IMG/VR virus record: IMGVR_UViG_3300049001_000080
Coordinates: 1 to 64,000 of that record
DNA length: 64,000 nt
DNA from: a virus
Reading direction: 5' to 3' (one strand)
Made by a program: the position numbers and the translations under genes. Below, one piece after another: positions 11,886 to 47,697 of this stretch. How positions within the stretch are numbered: the first letter of the stretch is position 1; each line of letters starts with the position of its first letter. A model generated the notes under the pieces. That model was not told the origin of the DNA, did not search any database, and saw nothing but the letters and a program-made list of their open reading frames with translations.

Positions 11886-12896
11886 TCATCCTGTTGTCTG
11901 GTGCGCCATCGGCGCTGCGCTCGGTGTGATCACCGCGACGAGGTCGATAGCCCGCGTCGCGTCGTGCTGGTCGGGCCAGTGGTGCTCGTCGACGAGGAGG
12001 ACGTCGACCCGGCCGACCCGTGCGTGCACCCAGGGGTGCGGTGTCTCCCCCTTGATCCCGACGGCCAGTCGGGCGTGGAGCCCCCTCTCGCTGGCGGCGG
12101 AGACGAGGAGCCGCTGCCACAGGGCCAGCAGGCGCTCATCGTCGGAGTCGCTCCGCCACCGGTAGTAGCCGTAGGGGTACCTGGCGGGCGGCGGGGCCTC
12201 ATCATGATGCTCGCAAGCATCCTTGGAGTCAACGGCCTGCGGGCCGTGCAGGCGCACGTCATCTGGACCCCAGCCCATCTGCTCGCCGACCACCGACGCC
12301 AGCTCGCCGTCGGTGAGCCCGACCTGACCGTGCCGGGTCCGCAGCACCCAGCCGGCGAACATGAACTCGGAGTAGTCGGCCTGCTCCTGCGCCTGACGCT
12401 GCTCGGCCAGGTAGGTGTCCTCGAAGCGCTCGTCCGGCGGGGTCCGGTCGTACCGGCGCCGGGTCTCGGGATCCAGGAGCTGGGCCAGGACGTACGTCAG
12501 GCGGGGGGAGGACGGGCCGTCGAGGGCCAGGTAGGCGCGCCGCAGCTCGTCCTTGCCGGCGCGCCAGCCCACCCCCAGCTCGCGGTAGTAGCCCTCGACG
12601 TCCCAGGACCACGGCGGTTCGTAGTGGCCGAGGGGCACGAGGTCGGTGCAGGTGCTGAACAGCACCGGGCCGTCGCCCACCCGCCAGGGGCGCTCAGGGT
12701 CGCGGCTGCTCTCGATCGCACCGCGGGTCGGGCTGGCCGTCACGACGCGGCTCTCCCGCGTCCTCGGCGTCTCGATCGTCGCCCCGCCGGTCGTCTGGGT
12801 CCGGCTGGTCGGGCAGGACCTGGCCGGTACCGTGCTTGACGATCGCCACGTCTCCTCCTCGGGTCGCTGATCACGGGCAGTGTCCATCGTGGACAC
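11886..12896 (-). CDS. J-domain (DnaJ-like) protein; start uncertain
   Basis: YYRELGV...DELRRAY...LLDPETRRRYD; no HPD motif. Confidence 0.6.
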   Translation of the reverse strand: MSTMDTARDQRPEEETWRSSSTVPARSCPTSRTQTTGGATIETPRTRESRVVTASPTRGAIESSRDPERPWRVGDGPVLFSTCTDLVPLGHYEPPWSWDVEGYYRELGVGWRAGKDELRRAYLALDGPSSPRLTYVLAQLLDPETRRRYDRTPPDERFEDTYLAEQRQAQEQADYSEFMFAGWVLRTRHGQVGLTDGELASVVGEQMGWGPDDVRLHGPQAVDSKDACEHHDEAPPPARYPYGYYRWRSDSDDERLLALWQRLLVSAASERGLHARLAVGIKGETPHPWVHARVGRVDVLLVDEHHWPDQHDATRAIDLVAVITPSAAPMAHQTTG

Positions 12897-13971
12897 TCTT
12901 GCAGAACCAGCAGCTCAGCGCCTTCGGTGGCTGCCAGAGGCAGGCCGGCACGGCGCCCGCGTACAGCTCCGCGACCGTCAGGTCGTCCATGTCGCCTGGG
13001 TCGGCCGCCCAGGGGCTGTCGACCACCCAGACGTCGGTGTAGGGAGTCAGGCGGTCGATCAGCCCGGGCCTGCGCTGGCGGCCCTCCTGGGCGCCCTGGA
13101 CCGCCTTCCAGCCGGCGTCGTCGTTGTCCATCCACAGCACGACCCGCTTGTGCTCGGCGATCAGACGGACCTGGGCGTCGGTCACCTCGCTGCCGAAGGT
13201 CGCCTCGATGGGCAGGTGGTGCGTGTGCCGCAGCACGCTCATCGGCGACTCGACCACCACGGCGATCCGACGCGCGGGGTCGTAGTTGTAGATCGTGCGC
13301 CCGGCCGGGAACTCGCCGGTGCTGAGGTACTTGGGGCTGCCGTCGTCGTAGAGCCGGCGGGACTGCCAGCCCACCAGGTCGCCGCGCCAGAAGTGCGGGA
13401 AGACGACGCGCTCCCCCGTCCGGCCCTGGTCGTCGAGGGGGAACCGCTCGGCGTACCCCACCCGCAGCGCCCGCACGTTCTCCCTCGGCACACCGCGACC
13501 CTTGGGCACGGCGTCGACGGGGTCGGTGAGGTAGGGGTGGATGAGCATCCACGGCGCGATGGCCCGCTCGCTCATCCTCGGGATCGGCGTCAGCCCGCGG
13601 CGGGGCGCGGCCTCCATCGCGTCGATGATGGACAGCAGCGTGCCGGCGTCCCAGTCCGGCCCTGTACAGGACTTCTGCTTCAGCCACTCCCGGGCCGCCG
13701 GCCCCGGGATGCCGCGGCACGCGGCGATGAACCAGAGCAGACCACCATAACTATTACAACTAAGACAATTGTAGACAAGCTTCTTATAATTTAGGGAGGC
13801 GGACGGTCGGCTCTCGTCATGCCAGGGCAGCACGCAACAGTGCTCCAGCTCACCCTTCTCGTGCCTGACCCTGATCCGCGTAGCGCCGAACTCGGCCAGC
13901 AGCCCGCGGCACATCTCCTCCTTGACCGCGTCCGGCAGGAGCGCGGTCTCGAAGATCGAGGTCTCGGTCAT
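12871..13971 (-). CDS. DNA primase (Zn-finger + TOPRIM)
   Basis: C..PWHDE..PS......YNCLSC; VVFP; KYL; VVVESPMS; WMDNDDAG. Confidence 0.9.
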   Translation of the reverse strand: MTETSIFETALLPDAVKEEMCRGLLAEFGATRIRVRHEKGELEHCCVLPWHDESRPSASLNYKKLVYNCLSCNSYGGLLWFIAACRGIPGPAAREWLKQKSCTGPDWDAGTLLSIIDAMEAAPRRGLTPIPRMSERAIAPWMLIHPYLTDPVDAVPKGRGVPRENVRALRVGYAERFPLDDQGRTGERVVFPHFWRGDLVGWQSRRLYDDGSPKYLSTGEFPAGRTIYNYDPARRIAVVVESPMSVLRHTHHLPIEATFGSEVTDAQVRLIAEHKRVVLWMDNDDAGWKAVQGAQEGRQRRPGLIDRLTPYTDVWVVDSPWAADPGDMDDLTVAELYAGAVPACLWQPPKALSCWFCKSVHDGHCP

Positions 13972-14297
13972 GACGCCCGCACCCTGGCGCCGTCGTCGTC
14001 CAGCCGACGGCGCGACCCGTCGCGCCACGAGCCGTTCCGCTCGCCCGTGGGGGCCCCGCCGCGGCTCGGCTGGTAGCTAGCGCGCCAGGAGAGCACCTCG
14101 TCGGGGTCGAACAGCCAGGTCGTCTGCCCGCCGACCTCGACTCGCACGCCGCCTGGGAAGCCGTTCGTGGCCCTGCGGCTCAGCCAGGCGTCGGCCTGCC
14201 TGCGGGTGACGCCCAGGAGGGCGGCCACGCTGGAGGTGCCGCGCAGGTAGCGCTCGCCGAGCACCTCGACGTACCTGACGACCTCGGGCGGCCTCAC
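13968..14297 (-). CDS. HTH DNA-binding protein (excisionase/AlpA-like)
   Basis: GTSSVAALLGVTRRQADAW...FP...LFDPDEVLSW. Confidence 0.7.
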   Translation of the reverse strand: MRPPEVVRYVEVLGERYLRGTSSVAALLGVTRRQADAWLSRRATNGFPGGVRVEVGGQTTWLFDPDEVLSWRASYQPSRGGAPTGERNGSWRDGSRRRLDDDGARVRAS

Positions 14298-31361: not shown

Positions 31362-32537
31362 TCATCTGGCTAGCTGCGGGCGAGCCAGCTCGACTAGGAC
31401 CTGCTGGCTGAGCAGCGCCAGCTCCACGATGACCTCGTCCACGCGGGCAGGTGGCGCGGCGACCTGGGTGGGCACGGCCTCGCGGGGCGCCTCCTGGGCC
31501 CAGCACTCGGCCAGCAGCGCGGCCATCTGCTCGGCGTTGGCCTTGCGGGCCGCCTGCATGCGCTCGAACCACTCGTGGAGCTGCCGCCGGCCGCGGGACG
31601 GGTCGTGCTCCGCCGCCCAGGCCAGGAAGCCCCTGCGCTCGAACTTGAGCCGGGGGTCCCGGAAGTCCCTGACCTCGCGGGCGACGCGGCGCTCGCGGTC
31701 CTGAGCACGGTCCCGGCCGGCGACGAGGGACGGCTCCAGGATCTGCCCCATCAGCCGCAGGACGCCCCTGCCACGAACGGCCAGGCCGGCGCGCTCCATC
31801 CGCTCGGCCAGCCGGCGGGCGGTGGCCTCCGACACGCACAGCAGCTCGCGGACCACCGAGAGCGGGACGTCCAGGAAGTCGTCGTCGGGCAGCTCGCCGA
31901 GGTGGCCGGCCAGGGCCAGGGCCGCCAGCGCCCACCCGTCGGTCCCCACGCACCTCAGGTCGTCGCGCCTGCCCTGGGGCTCCGACCAGACGTCCAGCGA
32001 GGGGTCCAGCACCTGCAAGTCCTCACCGCTCAGAGGTGCCCCAGTAGCATCTTCGCCCCGCTTTTCGCAAGCTTGACCAGGGAGTTCTCTCGCCTCCCCG
32101 CCCTGACAAGTGCTAGAACCCCTACTAGTTAAGATCATCTTGTTAGGCCTAGGAGAGGTACTAGAGGGGGAGATGATCTTCGTCGAGCGGCTGAGAACGT
32201 AAGAGCTACTAGAGGTAGTAGATGTTCTACTGGGGCACCTCTGAGCGGTCGTCGTTATAGACCACTTTGTGAGCCTTGGATCGTCGACGTCGACGCCCTG
32301 GGTGCCCTGCTGGTCGCAGCTCAGCAGGCCTGTGACCTCGCCCGTGGTCCACGGGGCCCAGCGCTGGACGGTGCGCTCGTGCAGGCCGCTGGCCACGGCC
32401 AGGTCGCGCTTGCCCTGGAGGGTGGGGTCGAGGGCGACCGCGGCGGCGATCCTGGCCTGGACGCGCTGCTCCGAGTTCGAGCCAGCGGAGAGGGTCGCGA
32501 TTATGGACCCGAGGGGTGCGCCTACGTTATCCTGCAT
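31362..32537 (-). CDS. Putative replication initiator-like HTH protein
   Basis: N-terminal HTH (RDLAVASGLHERTVQR), Ser/Thr linker encoded by an IR cassette, second wHTH (ELLCVSEATARRLAERMERAGL). Confidence 0.5.
   Translation of the reverse strand: MQDNVGAPLGSIIATLSAGSNSEQRVQARIAAAVALDPTLQGKRDLAVASGLHERTVQRWAPWTTGEVTGLLSCDQQGTQGVDVDDPRLTKWSITTTAQRCPSRTSTTSSSSYVLSRSTKIISPSSTSPRPNKMILTSRGSSTCQGGEARELPGQACEKRGEDATGAPLSGEDLQVLDPSLDVWSEPQGRRDDLRCVGTDGWALAALALAGHLGELPDDDFLDVPLSVVRELLCVSEATARRLAERMERAGLAVRGRGVLRLMGQILEPSLVAGRDRAQDRERRVAREVRDFRDPRLKFERRGFLAWAAEHDPSRGRRQLHEWFERMQAARKANAEQMAALLAECWAQEAPREAVPTQVAAPPARVDEVIVELALLSQQVLVELARPQLAR
32025..32249. repeat. 225-bp cassette with 23-bp perfect terminal IRs, an inner 10-bp IR and TACTAG repeats (candidate ori)
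   Basis: accgctcagaggtgccccagtag 32025-47 / reverse complement 32227-49; aagatcatct 32131-40 / agatgatctt 32171-80. Confidence 0.85.
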
Positions 32538-40434: not shown

Positions 40435-41702
40435 CGGTCCGCCCCCGGTCGCGCCCCGGCGTAGGGCGCGGACACCATCACGGCGTCGGAGACCGCGCGC
40501 CCGCGCATGATGGCCTCGGGGTCGGCGATGGCCCGGTCCGGGGTGAGGTCGACCGGGCGCCCGTCCGCCGCGGTGACCCGCTCGTAGTCGACGGCCGAGA
40601 TGACCGCGCCCTGGGTGGACTGAGTGTACGCGGTGACCGACTGGATGTCGGAGTTGTAGGACCACGCCTCGCCCTGGTAGGCCGTGAACGCCGGGCGCGC
40701 CCGGTCGACGGGCGTGGCGGAGGCCTGCGGGTAGTACGCCGCCAGCGACGGCCTCGGCACCACCCGGGTCCGGACCTCCCAGTACGTGGAGCTGGCCGAC
40801 GCGTCGCGGATGTGGGCCGGCGAGTGGACCGCCACCCCCTGGGCGTCGACGGTGAGCAGCGCGCCGGCCGGCTTGAGCCGGTCCAGCACGCGGGTCAGCC
40901 GGTACGCCTCCTCCAGCGTCATCGACCGCAGCGGACGGACCACGAACTCGGCCCGGTTGGACGTGGTGGTCCGACCGAATGACCCGGTGCCGCCCTCGAC
41001 GTCGGCGTAGGTGCCGCCGTCCATCGCCCCGTAGGTGACGAAGTGGGTCTCCACCTCGCCGTAGGTCCGCCCCGCCACCGCCGGTGGGGCGCCGCCAGGG
41101 TTGCCGCCGCCGTTCTCGTCGACCAGCGCCCAGGTCTCGTAGACGCGGCAGTCGACGCTCAGCAGCGCGCGGGCCACCGCGGCCATGCCGGCCGGCGTGC
41201 CCGCCATCGGGATGGCGCGCGAGAACTCGCTCACCCGCGACCGGTAGGCGGCGTCCCTCGCGTCCAGCTCGGCCCACTGCTCGGAGGTCGCGGCCTCGGT
41301 GTAGGGCGACAGGTCGAGCCGCTCGCCGGACAGGCGGGGGAAGCCCAGCAGCGCGCCGTAAAGGCGGTCCAGGTCCAGGTACCTCGTCGTGCTGACGACC
41401 GACCCCATGTGCGCGACCAGGTAGCGGCGCCGGAGCTGGCCGGCGCCGGAGTCGCCGAGCACGGCCTTGAGCAGCCGCGAGAGGTGCGACTCCGGCCGCG
41501 TGTCGTAGAGGTCGGGGAACAGGTGCGCGAGCTGCTCGGCCGAGGGCCGCGCCGGCAGCAGCGGGTCGGTGGTCGTGTCCAGCCGGGTCGAGCGCGGCGC
41601 GCCGCTGGTGGGCGCCTGGAGGGCCAGCAGCACGGCGTCCTGGAGGTACCGCCCGCCCGCGCCCTGGTCGAGCGCGGCCGGGTCGCCGTCGAGGGAGGCC
41701 AT
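40431..41702 (-). CDS. Baseplate wedge protein (P2 gpI-like position)
   Basis: LDRLYG...D..YR.R...GT..G...RLKPAG; follows baseplate J. Confidence 0.65.
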   Translation of the reverse strand: MASLDGDPAALDQGAGGRYLQDAVLLALQAPTSGAPRSTRLDTTTDPLLPARPSAEQLAHLFPDLYDTRPESHLSRLLKAVLGDSGAGQLRRRYLVAHMGSVVSTTRYLDLDRLYGALLGFPRLSGERLDLSPYTEAATSEQWAELDARDAAYRSRVSEFSRAIPMAGTPAGMAAVARALLSVDCRVYETWALVDENGGGNPGGAPPAVAGRTYGEVETHFVTYGAMDGGTYADVEGGTGSFGRTTTSNRAEFVVRPLRSMTLEEAYRLTRVLDRLKPAGALLTVDAQGVAVHSPAHIRDASASSTYWEVRTRVVPRPSLAAYYPQASATPVDRARPAFTAYQGEAWSYNSDIQSVTAYTQSTQGAVISAVDYERVTAADGRPVDLTPDRAIADPEAIMRGRAVSDAVMVSAPYAGARPGADR

Positions 41703-44479
41703 CAGGACACGCCGAACGAGTTGGCGGCCTTGGCCACGTAGTTGATCGAGTAGAGCGCGGGCACCTCGTTGTCGCCGAGCTGCACGTCCGCGGCCCGGGC
41801 CGGCGAGGACCCGGCGGTGATGAAGGAGATGCGGGTCCCGGCCGCGTCCACCCGCTCGATGGCGTAGGCGCCGCCGGTGGTCGGCTCGGCGCTGGTGAGG
41901 AGCCGGATGTTGTCCACGCCCGTCACCTCGTGCGCGACCTGGATGACGTCGGACACCTGCACGGGCGAGCCGAAGTCCTTCGCCGCGAGGAAGACGGCCA
42001 GGGAGGCCTGGAGCGCGGTGGCCACCTGGGCCGGGTCGTAGCCGGGGACGAACATGATCGCGAAGTTCAGCCGCAGTAGCACGCGCTTGGCGGCGTGGGC
42101 CCGCACGTCGGTCGCGACCAGTCGCCACCGCTCGACCCGCTCCTGGACGTCGCGTGGGATGGCGTTGTAGGAGTACTGGAGCGACGCGGCGGCGTTGTTC
42201 GCCGGGTGGTGGGCGGCCAGCCACTCCAGCCCGAACAGCGACCGCGGGCTGTACCCGTACGCCGTGTCGTCGTGGACGACCCAGTAGTCGGTGCCCTTGA
42301 CGTAGGTGTTCCCGCCGATGATCAGCGGGGAGGGGAAGACGTCGATCGGGCCGAACGCGAGCTGCATGAAGATGTTGGCCGCGGTCGGGTGCGTGGAGAC
42401 GGTGCCCTGGCGGACGAACTTGCCGGTGAACAGCGCGTCGGTCGAGCCCGACGTGAACACCCGGGCGGTCCGCATGTACGTCGTCTCGCTGGCGTCGACC
42501 GGCCGGTCCCCGTCCACCCAGACGTCCACCCGGTTGGTGATCCCGGCGGCCGGGTCGTTCCTGCTGGCCGAGCTGTTGTACTCGAAGTCGAGGTCGTAGA
42601 TCGCCCCGTCGGTCAGGCCCACGCCGATCGTGTGCACCTCGGGCGGGATCACGGTGGCGTCGAACGAGTTACCTGTGAAGTAGGTCCGACCGCCTCGGCG
42701 AGCCAGGAAGGTGCCGTTCCGAGTGGTGGGACACCAGATCGGTCCTGCGTAATGACGCAGGCTCTTCTTCATGGGGGCGACGCTTACGTGGCGTACCTTT
42801 TTAATGTTGACGTGATGCATCTGTACGCGGCCAAATGGAGTGTCAAGGACCTTACGGCCTTGGCGTGTCGGGAGGCCAACTAGTGCGCAAAGTGCCTGGA
42901 ATACATCTGCCTGATCGGCACTCGCAGTGCAGAAATACCGAGTACCCGTGCCTGCCCCTCTGACCCCTCCTCCTTGCATTCCCCCGTCACCCTTGATCAA
43001 GGTGTCGATCAACATCTCGCGCTGATGGACAGGTAGGACTGAGATCAGCTCGTAGGTCAGCTTCTTGTCGGGCAAGGCTGATCGGACTTGCCGGGCTAGT
43101 TCACGTGAAAAGGCAAAGATCGTGATGTCGTCGTCGATGTAGGTCTGATACGGATGCCCCAGCCTCTTGAGGAGGAGTCGGATCTCCTCCACCTTCTCAG
43201 GATTGGCGAGGTGACTCTGTCCGATTTTGACTCGAAGCTTCCTTGGCTGCGAGTCGAAGGAGCCGTCGCTAGCGACCCACCCCAGTAGTCGTACAAAATC
43301 ATCGGTATAAATAGATTCGATGGACTCTTCGAGGGGAGCCGTAACCACGATGCCGTCCGACGGCCGCAAGTCATGAGTCTCTCGTAGTATGGCGGGCTGG
43401 CTCGTGCGAATCCGGTGAGCGTTTGTGACCGGCCAACGGTGGTTCGTCGTCACCAAGGCCGAGATGGACCTCCCCTCCATCGATACGAGGGGCTCGTCTA
43501 CTTCCGCTCGGTAAAGATCTGTCACCGGCGTCCATTCAGCGACGCCGCGATCCAGATTCAAGGAGAGAATCTCATCGCCGATCTGGATCTGTCGATGGTC
43601 TACCCAGCCACTGTGTGACAGGGCCTGCGTGTTTTTGTCCACGCAGTAATGTACCCCCAGGGTTAGGATCTGGCCGGCATCGAGGTCGGCGCCCAGGGCC
43701 GGGTTGTCGGCGTAGATGTAGGTCGCGCTGGTGGCGGGGATGGAGCTGGTCGCGTCGCCGGACCCGTCGATCTGGACCTGCTCGCGCCAGTGCGAGGAGG
43801 AGCCGATCACCCTGGCCCGGGTGGCCACCCCGTCGTCGGTGGTGTCGGGGGTGCTGTCCTCCAGCGAGAGGCCCAGGAACATGTCCTCGGTGCCGGCCAG
43901 GCTGCGGAACACCGTCCGCTTGAACCGGTCGATGAGCGCGAGGTCGTCCTCGGAGCTGGTGCCGCCGGTCGTGGGCGAGGAGTTGGTCACGCTGGCGACC
44001 CCGCTGGCCGGCGAGGCGAGCCTGACCAGGGTGTTGGCCGCGAGGTTCCCGGACTGGCCCCCGACGATCGCCTGCACCGGGACGTCCACGCTCGACACCC
44101 CGCGCTGGAGGATCGCGGGAGAGACGGTCGCGAACACAGCGGGGACCGAGGTGGCCGTGGTGACCTGGGTGCCGGCGGCGATCGGGTAGTCCTGGTCGGC
44201 CGGCGTCGGGCGGGCGAACGTGACGACCCCGGTGCCGCGCTGCGCGGCGAACCTGGTGAAGCCGAACACGGCCACGAAGTCGTCGAGGTCGGCGCCGCGC
44301 TTGGAGTCGATGTCGAGCTGGTAGTTCAGCAGGTGCTGGTCGACGTACGCGGCGGCCACCGACTCGGCCACCACGTCGAGGATCTTGCGCACCGGCGTGC
44401 CGACCGAGGTGTCCAGCTCGGGCTCGGAGACGGCCAGGGCCGCGACCATCTGGGCGGCGACGTCGGCGGCGCTGGCCAT
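41702..44479 (-). CDS. Baseplate J-like protein interrupted by an intein
   Basis: G.DLD..FGFTR..A..GTG.VTF, I.AGT.V, G..GN..A, TGG...EDD.L..R. Confidence 0.9.
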   Translation of the reverse strand: MASAADVAAQMVAALAVSEPELDTSVGTPVRKILDVVAESVAAAYVDQHLLNYQLDIDSKRGADLDDFVAVFGFTRFAAQRGTGVVTFARPTPADQDYPIAAGTQVTTATSVPAVFATVSPAILQRGVSSVDVPVQAIVGGQSGNLAANTLVRLASPASGVASVTNSSPTTGGTSSEDDLALIDRFKRTVFRSLAGTEDMFLGLSLEDSTPDTTDDGVATRARVIGSSSHWREQVQIDGSGDATSSIPATSATYIYADNPALGADLDAGQILTLGVHYCVDKNTQALSHSGWVDHRQIQIGDEILSLNLDRGVAEWTPVTDLYRAEVDEPLVSMEGRSISALVTTNHRWPVTNAHRIRTSQPAILRETHDLRPSDGIVVTAPLEESIESIYTDDFVRLLGWVASDGSFDSQPRKLRVKIGQSHLANPEKVEEIRLLLKRLGHPYQTYIDDDITIFAFSRELARQVRSALPDKKLTYELISVLPVHQREMLIDTLIKGDGGMQGGGVRGAGTGTRYFCTASADQADVFQALCALVGLPTRQGRKVLDTPFGRVQMHHVNIKKVRHVSVAPMKKSLRHYAGPIWCPTTRNGTFLARRGGRTYFTGNSFDATVIPPEVHTIGVGLTDGAIYDLDFEYNSSASRNDPAAGITNRVDVWVDGDRPVDASETTYMRTARVFTSGSTDALFTGKFVRQGTVSTHPTAANIFMQLAFGPIDVFPSPLIIGGNTYVKGTDYWVVHDDTAYGYSPRSLFGLEWLAAHHPANNAAASLQYSYNAIPRDVQERVERWRLVATDVRAHAAKRVLLRLNFAIMFVPGYDPAQVATALQASLAVFLAAKDFGSPVQVSDVIQVAHEVTGVDNIRLLTSAEPTTGGAYAIERVDAAGTRISFITAGSSPARAADVQLGDNEVPALYSINYVAKAANSFGVS
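42668..43645 (-). mobile_element. Intein (326 aa) with LAGLIDADG homing endonuclease
   Basis: Block A CVDKNTQAL, block B TTNHRW, LLGWVASDG / LIKGDG, blocks F/G IWCPTT...YFTGN|S; lower GC than the host gene. Confidence 0.93.
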
Positions 44480-44956: not shown

Positions 44957-45292
44957 CTACGTCGTGCCGTCCTCGACCAGCCCGAGGGCCACCAGGGCGT
45001 CCAGCACGGACAGCGTGACGGCGTCCGCGCCCGCCCTGGCCCCCGACACCACCGGCGGCCGTGGGGCGTCAATCATCGCTGACAGCACCCAGGTGTCGCC
45101 GGTCATCCTGGACACCACCCACAGCTCGTCGACGGCCGGCGGCGGGTTCCCCTTGGGGCGGGTCGAGTAGCGGACGACCCGCTCGCGCCCGAGCGTGTCC
45201 CGCACGATGCAGGTCCCGTCCTCCAACACCGAGGTGACCCGGGCACGGGTCGTCTCCAGGCCGGCGGGCGGGCGTCGCGGGTCGAGCGTCAC
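44957..45292 (-). CDS. Baseplate spike-like OB-fold protein
   Basis: ARVTSV...P.VDELWVV; position between hub and gp25. Confidence 0.5.
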   Translation of the reverse strand: MTLDPRRPPAGLETTRARVTSVLEDGTCIVRDTLGRERVVRYSTRPKGNPPPAVDELWVVSRMTGDTWVLSAMIDAPRPPVVSGARAGADAVTLSVLDALVALGLVEDGTT

Positions 45293-47697
45293 AGCGCCGC
45301 CCCCCGGGGGAGGCCCTTGATGCCGTCGCGCGGGCCGATCGTGGACCAGCCGATCACCCTGGCCGTGGTGGCGAAGCCGCCGCCGGTCCGGAGGTCGAAG
45401 GTGTGCTCGACCTCCTGGACGTACCCCTGGATGCCGTAGGTCGGCAGCACCACGAGCATGCCGGGGTACAGCTCGGGCATGAAGGTCAGCGGCAGCGACG
45501 CGCTGTACTGCGAGGCCCAGTTGAGCATGAACCGGCTCACGGCGAAGAAGAACTCCTGCCGCGGGCCGGTGATGTCGTCCATCGGCTCCCAGACCGGCCG
45601 CGCGCCGTATCGGCGCAGGAACGCCTTGCCGTTCTCGCGGAACTCGGCCCGGTCGACCTTGAACAACGCGCGCATCAGCGGCGCGAACTCCACGCTCGCG
45701 ATGCCGGCGGTCGAGTACTGCTGGTAGATCGCGGTGGAGTCGCCCAGCCCCTCGACGCCGGTCGTCGAGGACGTCACGAACCAGTGCGTCTTGAGGTTGG
45801 CGTCGCCCTTGGCGACCGAGAAGCCCTGCTGGATCTCGATCGGCTGGATCACCATCTTGGCCGCGGTGCCCCACCAGCCGAAGTAGTCCGGGAACCAGGC
45901 GATGAAGTCGCCGTTGGGCGCCGAGCAGTAGCTACGCAACCCGGCGGCCATCAGCGCGGCGACCGTCTCCATGATCGGCTTGTCGTTCATCAGCGCGCGG
46001 ATGCCGCCGAGCAGGTCGCCGCCGAAGTCGGCGCTGCCGATCCACTGGAAGACGTTGAACAGCGACGCGCCCAGGCTCGGGCTCGACCCACCTGAGCCGG
46101 AGGCCGACGTCGGGTCGCCACCCGCACCCGTGCCCGCAGTGCCGGCGTAGTCGAGGTCCGGCACCAGCCCGGCGTGTGTCCAGTGGTTGGAGGCGAACGC
46201 GAAGATCCCGCACCCGTCCTGGGTGCCGCGCGCCTCCGCAGTGGTGCCGTTGCCCATCGAGACGCCGACGTGGTGGATGGCGCGCGGGTCGCCGTTGTCG
46301 GTGACGAAGACCAGGGCGCCCTTGGTGGTCTGCGCCTGCGAGACGGGGATGGGGCGGCACGCCGCGTACTGGTACTTCGCGCCGTCGACGAACGCGCCCG
46401 CCCCGATCCTGCTATGTGCCCATTTGACTAGCTCACTACAGTCCAAGGCGTCGGGGTCCGGGTCGGCGGCGGAGGCGGTGGCGCCGAAGAGGTACGGGTG
46501 CCCGAGCCGGCACCAGGCCGCCGCGACGTCGGCGAGAGAGGCCGCCGAGCGCTGGTTGGCCAGCGCGGCCCCCAGGCCGGTCGCCAGCGAGGCCCCGGAG
46601 GTGGAGCCACCAGAGGTGACCAGCGAGCCGGTGGCGGTGTCCACGGGCCCCACGGGCATGCCGGAGGGCGCGAAGGCGACGCTCACCTGCCCGCCGCCGG
46701 CCGGCAGCCCGAGCGCCTTGAGCGCGGCCGGGCTGGTGTCGGCGATGTGCGCGGTCGAGGCGTCGTAGTCGACCGGCCCCCAGCCGAGGCCGGCGAGGCA
46801 GACCGCCTTGTTCGTCTTGGGGTTGACGATCAGCATCCGCCGGCCGGTCCACCACGCCCGCGCCCGGCCCTGGTCCACCCCCGGCACGGGGGAGAGCTGC
46901 TGGTCGCCCGGGAACCGGTGCTGGCGGCTCAGGTAGGGCCAGCGCATGGCGACGTAGTACGGGCTCGCCCCGGGGTTGGCCGAGCGCGCGTCGAGGTGGT
47001 CGACCCGCGGGCTGTAGGCGCCGATGGTCCCCGAGATGTCCGGCAGCGCGCCGGTGCCCGGGCCGTCCCCGGCGATGAGCTGGGTGCCGCGCTCGACCGG
47101 CGAGATGCCGGACACGTAGCCGTGGCTGCCGACGTGCGCGACGAGCTGGAGCTTGGTGGCCTCGCCGATCAGGTCCCGCGCGACGCCGGCCACCACGGTG
47201 AACCAGTCGTCGGGGATCGCGCCGATGTGGACCTGGGCCCTCGGCCAGCCGGCGACCTCGGTCAGCAGCCGGAGCGCTCGCTTGGCCAGCCCGCCGTCGG
47301 TGATGTCCGCGCGGTTGGCGACGTCGCCGAGGTAGAGCATCTGGTAGGCGGCCTCGGTGCTCGGGTCCCACTGCCAGTACTGGAGCCGCTTGAGGGTGCA
47401 GCTCGCCGTGAGCACGACGGCGCCCGGCACCGAGGAGAACGCCGGCACCGAGTCCAGGTAGCCGGTGAGGCACAGCAGCCGCTTGATCCTGGTCAGGTAG
47501 ATCACGATCCGGTCCATCGTGTCGAACAGGCCGTCGTACTTGCGGCCGGTGTTCTGGAGCGTCAGCGTGGCCGAGGAGACCCCGTCGACGACACGGGTCG
47601 CACCGCCCATCGTGATGTCGTCGCTGACGTCATAGATCTTGCCGTCGGACGCGGCGATGTGCGCCTCTACCCTCGGCGAGTAAACGAACGTTGACAC
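45289..47697 (-). CDS. Baseplate hub with inserted DPBB (RlpA-like) and NlpC/P60 peptidoglycan hydrolase domains
   Basis: PY.FG...LDCSELV.W...G.LVF...HVG; YVAMRW...V.NP.T.K.V...WGP...D.SP.A...LG. Confidence 0.8.
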   Translation of the reverse strand: MSTFVYSPRVEAHIAASDGKIYDVSDDITMGGATRVVDGVSSATLTLQNTGRKYDGLFDTMDRIVIYLTRIKRLLCLTGYLDSVPAFSSVPGAVVLTASCTLKRLQYWQWDPSTEAAYQMLYLGDVANRADITDGGLAKRALRLLTEVAGWPRAQVHIGAIPDDWFTVVAGVARDLIGEATKLQLVAHVGSHGYVSGISPVERGTQLIAGDGPGTGALPDISGTIGAYSPRVDHLDARSANPGASPYYVAMRWPYLSRQHRFPGDQQLSPVPGVDQGRARAWWTGRRMLIVNPKTNKAVCLAGLGWGPVDYDASTAHIADTSPAALKALGLPAGGGQVSVAFAPSGMPVGPVDTATGSLVTSGGSTSGASLATGLGAALANQRSAASLADVAAAWCRLGHPYLFGATASAADPDPDALDCSELVKWAHSRIGAGAFVDGAKYQYAACRPIPVSQAQTTKGALVFVTDNGDPRAIHHVGVSMGNGTTAEARGTQDGCGIFAFASNHWTHAGLVPDLDYAGTAGTGAGGDPTSASGSGGSSPSLGASLFNVFQWIGSADFGGDLLGGIRALMNDKPIMETVAALMAAGLRSYCSAPNGDFIAWFPDYFGWWGTAAKMVIQPIEIQQGFSVAKGDANLKTHWFVTSSTTGVEGLGDSTAIYQQYSTAGIASVEFAPLMRALFKVDRAEFRENGKAFLRRYGARPVWEPMDDITGPRQEFFFAVSRFMLNWASQYSASLPLTFMPELYPGMLVVLPTYGIQGYVQEVEHTFDLRTGGGFATTARVIGWSTIGPRDGIKGLPRGAAL

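Follow-up and report, generated by a model that had tools for sequence, protein, structure and literature searches.

The inteins with LAGLIDADG endonucleases that have been surveyed in actinobacteriophages reside in genes for a DnaG-like primase, the portal, the baseplate wedge and the terminase (PMC5050341; bioRxiv 10.1101/2025.01.02.630785), and phage intein endonucleases, in this case those of terminase inteins, cleave the intein-less alleles of partner or related phages (PMC5050341). Homing-cycle theory predicts endonuclease-resistant target alleles, but for phage inteins the surveys raise the resistance of non-invaded phages, through mutation of the endonuclease target, as a mere possibility for future work (PMC5050341; bioRxiv 10.1101/2025.01.02.630785). 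The locus described here is the DnaG-type DNA primase gene in the first 64 kb (64,000 nucleotides, referred to throughout as the window) of the 102,445-bp IMG/VR record IMGVR_UViG_3300049001_000080, a viral sequence with 72% guanine plus cytosine (GC) and an estimated completeness of about 70%. Within the codons for the primase zinc finger lies an A/T-rich patch whose position is that of a vacant LAGLIDADG intein site. The kind of element and the host genes are those of the actinobacteriophage surveys; however, the surveys describe occupied sites (PMC5050341; bioRxiv 10.1101/2025.01.02.630785), whereas this one is empty and heavily recoded.

LAGLIDADG endonucleases recognize asymmetric sites of 24–31 bp and tolerate synonymous changes in them better than non-synonymous ones (10.64898/2026.08.13.744650). 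In the WHO/FBA1 system of Torulaspora yeasts, as would be the case here, endonucleases of the LAGLIDADG family confront natural alleles that are either sensitive or resistant, with change concentrated in the recognition site, and one third of single synonymous changes there give resistance (10.64898/2026.08.13.744650). The WHO resistant sequence is, however, carried by the element itself and accompanied by positively selected amino acid changes (10.64898/2026.08.13.744650), whereas the phage patch is purely synonymous, extends over about 54 bp, and lies in an element-free allele. The cox1 intron of angiosperm mitochondria likewise leaves a run of synonymous third-position changes beside its homing site that can persist in an element-less allele, although that tract, 3–21 bp long (up to nine marker sites when extended), is confined to the 3′ side, derives from the donor and nearly always accompanies the intron (PMC3192709). 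Unlike cox1, it is the empty primase allele that is recoded here, and the flanks of the sampled intein-bearing alleles are ordinary. The free-standing endonucleases Seg and Mob of the T-even phages are responsible for marker exclusion and intronless homing, the choice of the genome to be cut depending on nucleotide differences at the target. The primase locus would resemble these in being a conflict of phage against phage over nucleotide differences at a conserved target, but it differs in that Seg and Mob are encoded by free-standing genes beside the target, and there is no such gene near the window primase.

The window primase has the two domains of a DnaG-type enzyme, a CHC2 zinc ribbon and a Toprim domain, with Pfam matches to Zn_ribbon_DnaG (PF01807, 25.6 bits) and Toprim_2 (PF13155, 25.9 bits) that are both above their cut-offs; it also matches phrog_47 (DNA primase) and is identical across all 366 amino acids (aa) to the recorded protein P0156. 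The patch encodes LNYKKLVYNCLSCNSYGG, and its composition, when read from the minus strand, is as an earlier sequence-only reading had given it: 14 of the 18 codons end in A or T (13 in T and one in A), 16 of the 54 bases are G or C, and the CxxC motif is intact. The description of the patch as sharp holds for its 3′ edge; the 5′ edge is less so, with rare CAT and CGA codons within nine codons upstream. Both of the lysine codons remain AAG, and the leucine codons include no TTA. Among 54-nucleotide segments the patch is the GC minimum not only of the window but of the full record, the runner-up being at 41%, and the probability of such a codon choice is about 1e-22 given the amino acids and the codon usage of the genome. 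Twelve of the 18 codons each account for less than 10% of the usage for their own amino acid in the genome, and three of the eight AAT codons present across 74 candidate open reading frames (ORFs) are found here. When 83 called genes were scanned in frame for islands of rare codons, the patch ranked top at both of the window sizes used; its 18 codons score 56.5 bits, where the 99.9th percentile of the 26,542 18-codon windows is 44.8.

The protein sequence of the patch is that of its family, with the N, K, C..C and GG residues invariant in a 17-sequence alignment; the variable residues V66, S71, N74 and Y76 are those of the window's own 90%-identity cluster, and V66 is also present in P0003–P0005. 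For the nucleotide sequence, DNA of homologs was drawn from viral and metagenome contigs, giving 54 distinct intein-free and five intein-bearing alleles. The GC content of third codon positions (GC3) at the site is 0.22 in the window and 0.39–1.0 over these 59 alleles, and the difference between site GC3 and gene GC3 is −0.68 in the window compared with −0.20 to +0.35 in the intein-free alleles; the patch is absent from all 54 of these. In phages of 46–48% GC the asparagine, tyrosine and cysteine codons at the site are still mostly C-ending. Wobble-position mismatches to the family consensus number 14 in the window, the maximum among 35 alleles and to be compared with a typical value of 6. No second copy of the nucleotide patch was found in viral contigs by either degenerate or exact pattern scans, nor did a near-identity DNA search of a phage collection return a match. 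We also note that in four primase homologs of lower GC (L047, L055, L057 and L106; 48–56%) the 18 codons at the junction have a GC3 that is 0.2–0.3 above that of the rest of the gene, from which it may be that the nucleotide sequence of the homing site is homogenized across the primase family.

The patch is centred on the junction between N68 and C69, with nine codons on either side, and alignment places an intein at exactly this ..Y[NKR]/C..C.. junction in 17 homologs (P0094 and P0122–P0137) that are 40–54% identical. C69 corresponds to both the +1 nucleophile and the first cysteine of the CxxC; in the window the gene of 366 aa has no insertion and the zinc-finger motif is intact. A search for longer homologs produced 16 proteins of 677–715 aa, with precomputed matches to LAGLIDADG_3 (PF14528) in 15 of the 16 and to Intein_splicing in three. 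The ..GDG.. and ..AADG.. motifs of LAGLIDADG type, acidic residues included, are retained in all 16 of the full-length inteins as well as in P0158 (see below), and from these the endonuclease of the primase intein looks active. The shorter P0094 (522 aa) has a mini-intein between ..TYK and CLGC.., and shows the decay stage of the homing cycle. In the five intein-bearing alleles for which the DNA was read, the extein flanks are G/C-rich, with a GC3 of 0.78–0.94.

The intein is present in near-identical as well as distant relatives. P0158 (688 aa), a fellow member of a 90%-identity cluster with the 98% relative P0002, has a 322-aa intein at the same junction, with a LAGLIDADG_3 match above the cut-off and a sub-threshold match to Intein_splicing. 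Its C-extein is 95% identical to that of the window primase, and the residues flanking the junction (VYN/CLSCNSYGG) are identical. Five of the 20 extein differences between the two proteins lie within residues 33–54 (window ~13810–13875), just upstream of the intein, and three of these five substitutions match the 83% relative P0003; the cluster is a probable N-side co-conversion tract from the intein donor. Because the window primase is without these five substitutions, it is not a simple deletion derivative of the P0158 allele. We note also that the intein and the C-extein both start with Cys-Leu, a microhomology. The sequence-only reading had proposed to align homologous primases and to look for an intein in relatives; relatives carry one at this very site, and the homologs do not share the patch.

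Three weaker islands of rare codons accompany the patch as clean cases in this genome, one in the hub hydrolase gene and two in the portal gene (Table 1). The hub island scores 25 bits, which places it in the top 0.7% of windows and highest within its 802-codon gene. The hub homolog P0150 (1162 aa) has an intein between the catalytic C and S (C420/S421 of the window protein), with LAGLIDADG_3 above its cut-off and Intein_splicing just below; the only hub relatives in viral contigs are 34% identical and have different residues at the island. For the portal family, a search of 1.84 billion representatives revealed insertions at about nine positions, and two of these are relevant to the islands: R144/C145 is interrupted in P0171, P0173 and P0213, and G401/T402 in P0169, P0174 and P0182. 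The portal insertions are most likely inteins, as judged from their length (about 155–395 aa), their initial cysteine and the presence of Cys, Ser or Thr after their end; among the three weaker islands it is at the hub junction only that the occupant is demonstrated to be an intein. All four clean islands, in the primase, the hub and twice in the portal, therefore fall on junctions that are interrupted in homologs, and the joint chance of this is roughly 1e-5, on the assumption that a 13-codon window has 14 junction positions and that the primase and the hub have a single site each and the portal about nine. A single GC-to-AT transition, in some cases C>T and in others G>A, separates 35 of the 37 rare codons in the four islands from a common codon, although this property discriminates weakly because it is shared by almost any A/T-ending codon.

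Table 1. Positions of the patch, its gene and related features; coordinates are those of the window except where G000:C1 is given.
Feature	Position	Strand	Description
DnaG-type DNA primase gene	12871..13971	-	366 aa (MTETS... to ...HDGHCP); ATG 13971, stop 12871-12873; from translation, Pfam and PHROG
Recoded patch	13741..13794	-	18 codons, residues 60-77; 14 A/T-ending; 30% GC; amino acids conserved
Empty intein insertion junction, N68/C69	13767..13768	-	Between AAT 13770-13768 and TGT 13767-13765; occupied in 17 homologs and P0158
Sigma-70-like promoter match	13762..13790	+	AAGACA, 17-nt spacer, TATAAT; antisense to primase; consensus match only
Resident 326-aa LAGLIDADG intein	42668..43645	-	Inside baseplate J / wedge gene 41702-44479; occupied site, in-genome control
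Hub rare-codon island, NlpC/P60 catalytic DC/SE	46408..46446	-	Gene 45289-47697; empty junction between 46438 and 46437
Portal rare-codon islands, residues 141-157 and 402-418	G000:C1 93804-93854, 93021-93071	-	Gene 92133-94274, outside the window

The genome also provides an occupied site for comparison, within the baseplate J gene. This resident intein starts with Cys and ends in ..TGN followed by Ser; it is 57% GC, with a GC3 of 0.66 compared with 0.985 in its extein, which suggests that it arrived recently from a lower-GC source. Its C-extein flank is in normal codons, and the N-flank has four rare codons out of 12. Since the C-extein flank at this occupied site is normal, A/T-rich flanks do not simply accompany inteins.

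We think it probable that the primase patch is an empty homing site that has been recoded at its wobble positions and thereby resists the intein endonuclease. That it is a vacant intein site is firm; resistance to cleavage, with selection as the cause, is inferred from the position, uniqueness and purely synonymous character of the patch and from the apparently intact endonuclease of a near-identical allele. According to this proposal, a LAGLIDADG intein circulates among the primases of this phage family and the window allele is one that is free of it. The endonuclease would read about 24–31 bp at the junction and tolerate single wobble changes, such that only many silent changes together would abolish cutting; the known tolerance of LAGLIDADG enzymes for synonymous changes would explain why so many are needed. 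Alleles that are cut less would escape invasion and hence be favoured. The A/T-richness need not itself be selected, because the only synonym of a preferred Asn, Tyr, Cys or AGY-Ser codon ends in T; in a genome of G/C-ending codons, and with GC-to-AT transitions being the commonest, divergence at the site would be expected to appear A/T-rich. The changes could have arisen stepwise in place or in one step through a short conversion tract induced by a break. More tentatively, and as a proposal we find plausible rather than probable, at least four homing sites in this genome (primase, hub hydrolase and two in the portal) have been silently rewritten under attack by intein endonucleases, with intein-bearing and recoded intein-free primase alleles coexisting in a population that is more than 90% identical.

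Several observations weigh against the reading as a resistant homing site. The patch, at 54 bases, is longer than the 24–31 bp sites of characterized LAGLIDADG enzymes, and a change in all nine of the C-side codons suggests one event more than it does gradual selection. The lead of the window in departures from the family consensus is at wobble positions only, as two other alleles also reach its total of 22 mismatches. Because the portal family has about nine insertion sites, a chance coincidence has a probability of about 0.2 for each portal island. Moreover, two other portal intein sites, W115/C116 and W176/C177, are written in normal codons in this genome; phage Shnickers and three IMG/VR relatives have an occupied W115/C116, and an 88% identical relative has an occupied W176/C177. 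A rule that every intein site is recoded is excluded by these two sites.

The main competing explanation, which we consider unlikely, is that the patch is a donor-derived conversion tract without a selected function. It could have been imported with an intein from a lower-GC phage as co-converted extein flanks, the intein later being lost precisely, or an endonuclease break could have been repaired from a divergent intein-free homolog, with the tract copied over in a single step. The sharp 3′ edge, the alteration of every C-side codon, the symmetry about the break point and the 54-bp length are all in keeping with such an origin, and other points also favour it: the cox1 homing intron leaves a short synonymous third-position tract that can outlast the intron (PMC3192709), the resident baseplate J intein is of lower GC and has its four rare codons in the last 12 N-extein codons, P0158 has its probable N-side co-conversion cluster, and the Cys-Leu microhomology of the intein and C-extein starts could permit a precise deletion. 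However, none of the 59 sampled alleles comes near a GC3 of 0.22 at the site, phages of 46–48% GC included, and the five occupied primase alleles have G/C-rich flanks. The patch is also unlike the coding sequence of a low-GC donor in having AAG for both lysines and no TTA for leucine, its variable residues match those of the window's own 90% cluster, and no copy of it is seen in viral contigs. The N-extein cluster of P0158 is missing from the window, and precise loss of an intein is difficult given that loss through RNA is impossible. An artefact, either an assembly chimera or a sequencing error, is the least credible alternative of all; the record does come from a metagenome assembly, and the collections searched contain no second copy of the nucleotide patch, but the patch is in frame, it encodes the same residues as the independent assemblies of the 98% relatives P0002 and P0157 and of P0158, and an artefact would not keep 18 codons of a conserved motif.

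Of the remaining alternatives, another nuclease, an embedded signal and hypermutation would all leave the coincidence with intein junctions unaccounted for. Escape from some other sequence-directed nuclease acting at the zinc finger, whether CRISPR (especially a mismatch-tolerant type), a free-standing homing endonuclease or restriction, is in our view very unlikely: the patch is of protospacer-order length, and purely synonymous change in an essential motif resembles nuclease escape, but this would not explain the placement of the four clean islands on interrupted junctions or the centring of the primase patch. The neighbours of the primase include helicase, loader, Pol III alpha and RecA genes but no endonuclease gene, and Pfam analysis of nine neighbouring ORFs gave replication proteins only, with no free-standing endonuclease beside the primase. 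A degenerate pattern of the site gave no matches in 185,579 bacterial and archaeal genomes, one per species, which is a weak test in that the collection is not a spacer database; the earlier suggestion of a recoded intein or CRISPR target therefore stands for the intein, with the CRISPR part unmatched in this one scan. We give equally little weight to a DNA or RNA signal that is embedded in the gene and selected for A/T, such as an antisense promoter, an unwinding element or origin, or a silencer-binding site. The plus-strand elements pointed out by the sequence-only reading are present, with ACAA at 13756, 13765 and 13775 (spacings of 9 and 10 bp) and TATAAT at 13785–13790, and they coincide with the lowest-GC spot of the genome and with a sigma-70-like match at 10 of 12 positions, for which the expectation is 0.1 per 800 bp. 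These hexamers and ACAA repeats nevertheless arise directly from T-ending Asn, Tyr and Cys codons, the recoded Asn-Tyr-Lys codons reading TATAAT on the opposite strand, and the promoter match is thus probably a by-product of the recoding; the suggested antisense promoter survives as a consensus match that does not explain the intein coincidence. Patch and promoter match are both absent from the 54 intein-free relatives, nearly all genes are on the minus strand, and the downstream plus-strand ORF at 13819–14076 is unlike a real gene, since its third positions are the first codon positions of the primase and it is without the G/C-rich third positions that real genes have. The origin or unwinding element that had also been proposed finds no support, given this lack of conservation together with the absence of iterons or repeat families beside the patch and of a turn in the cumulative GC skew at 13.7 kb. 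A rare-codon translational pause that aids folding or zinc loading of the zinc finger is somewhat less likely still, even though 12 of 18 codons are below 10% usage and the patch lies on the metal-binding knuckle. A pause that assists folding is expected 30–40 codons downstream of the domain, not on the domain, whereas the patch is on the zinc-finger domain itself; it is conserved in no relative, and the other islands are in unrelated folds and always at intein junctions. Similarly improbable is local hypermutation by a cytosine deaminase, filtered by purifying selection and without a link to an intein, which the sequence-only reading had offered as a local C-to-T footprint. All 13 of the T-ending codons are one C-to-T change from a common synonym (11 were scored, two TGT codons being outside the rarity cut-off), a further codon is one G-to-A change away, and the two AAG lysine codons are untouched. 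The changed cytosines nonetheless share no 5′ context, being preceded by A, T or G, the excess of C>T is a necessary consequence of two-fold codons, and G>A changes (12) are about as frequent as C>T changes (11) in the other three islands. Deamination of resected ends at a break was also considered and is excluded, as it would require the opposite strand for those C>T changes that lie downstream of the junction.

If the patch is indeed a homing site made resistant by silent change, its interest lies primarily in the allele pair. The 54-bp synonymous rewrite of the zinc finger and the more than 90% identical intein-bearing allele form a concrete pair with which to ask if homing is blocked by silent recoding, what number of wobble changes this takes, and over what length the endonuclease reads its site; the two alleles would constitute a natural case, in phages, of an intein and its target in an arms race that is open to direct test. 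Rare-codon islands would then serve as a detector, from sequence only, of present or past endonuclease conflict, such that a sharp island in a conserved motif of a high-GC phage can point to a vacant homing site and should not be annotated as a promoter, an origin or an assembly error. Such islands would also show which silent changes are used in nature to shield essential genes from selfish nucleases.

The primase is in a replication block with genes for a DnaB-like helicase, a DnaC/IstB-like loader, a 5′–3′ exonuclease, Pol III alpha and RecA, and the orientation of nearly all of the genes is that of the minus strand. The ATG of the primase gene overlaps the stop codon of the upstream ORF (ATGA, 13968–13971), which suggests translational coupling in a replication operon. 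The closest cultured relatives are about 30% identical and include Bixzunavirus-type phages (the genus of phage Shnickers), related mycobacteriophages, and Gordonia and Rhodococcus phages.

Several other high-scoring islands in the codon scan were discarded: some are artefacts of a wrong frame or of a start region, and the others are the resident intein, a poly-Asp run and a segment of 225 bp. The last of these, at 32025–32249, is a lower-GC in-frame stretch of about 225 bp in gene 31365–32537 and is among the top rare-codon regions. The third-ranked region (G000:C1 ~97020–97110, in minus-strand gene 96636–98534) is a run of Asp and Glu residues encoded mostly by GAT, and looks like a composition effect and not a homing site. 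Two modest islands of 23 bits are found in the last 16 codons of the major head protein gene (71517–72524) and at codons ~636–652 of gene 74002–77037 (both in G000:C1 coordinates), the latter encoding a 1012-aa protein with a head-protease-like N-terminus.

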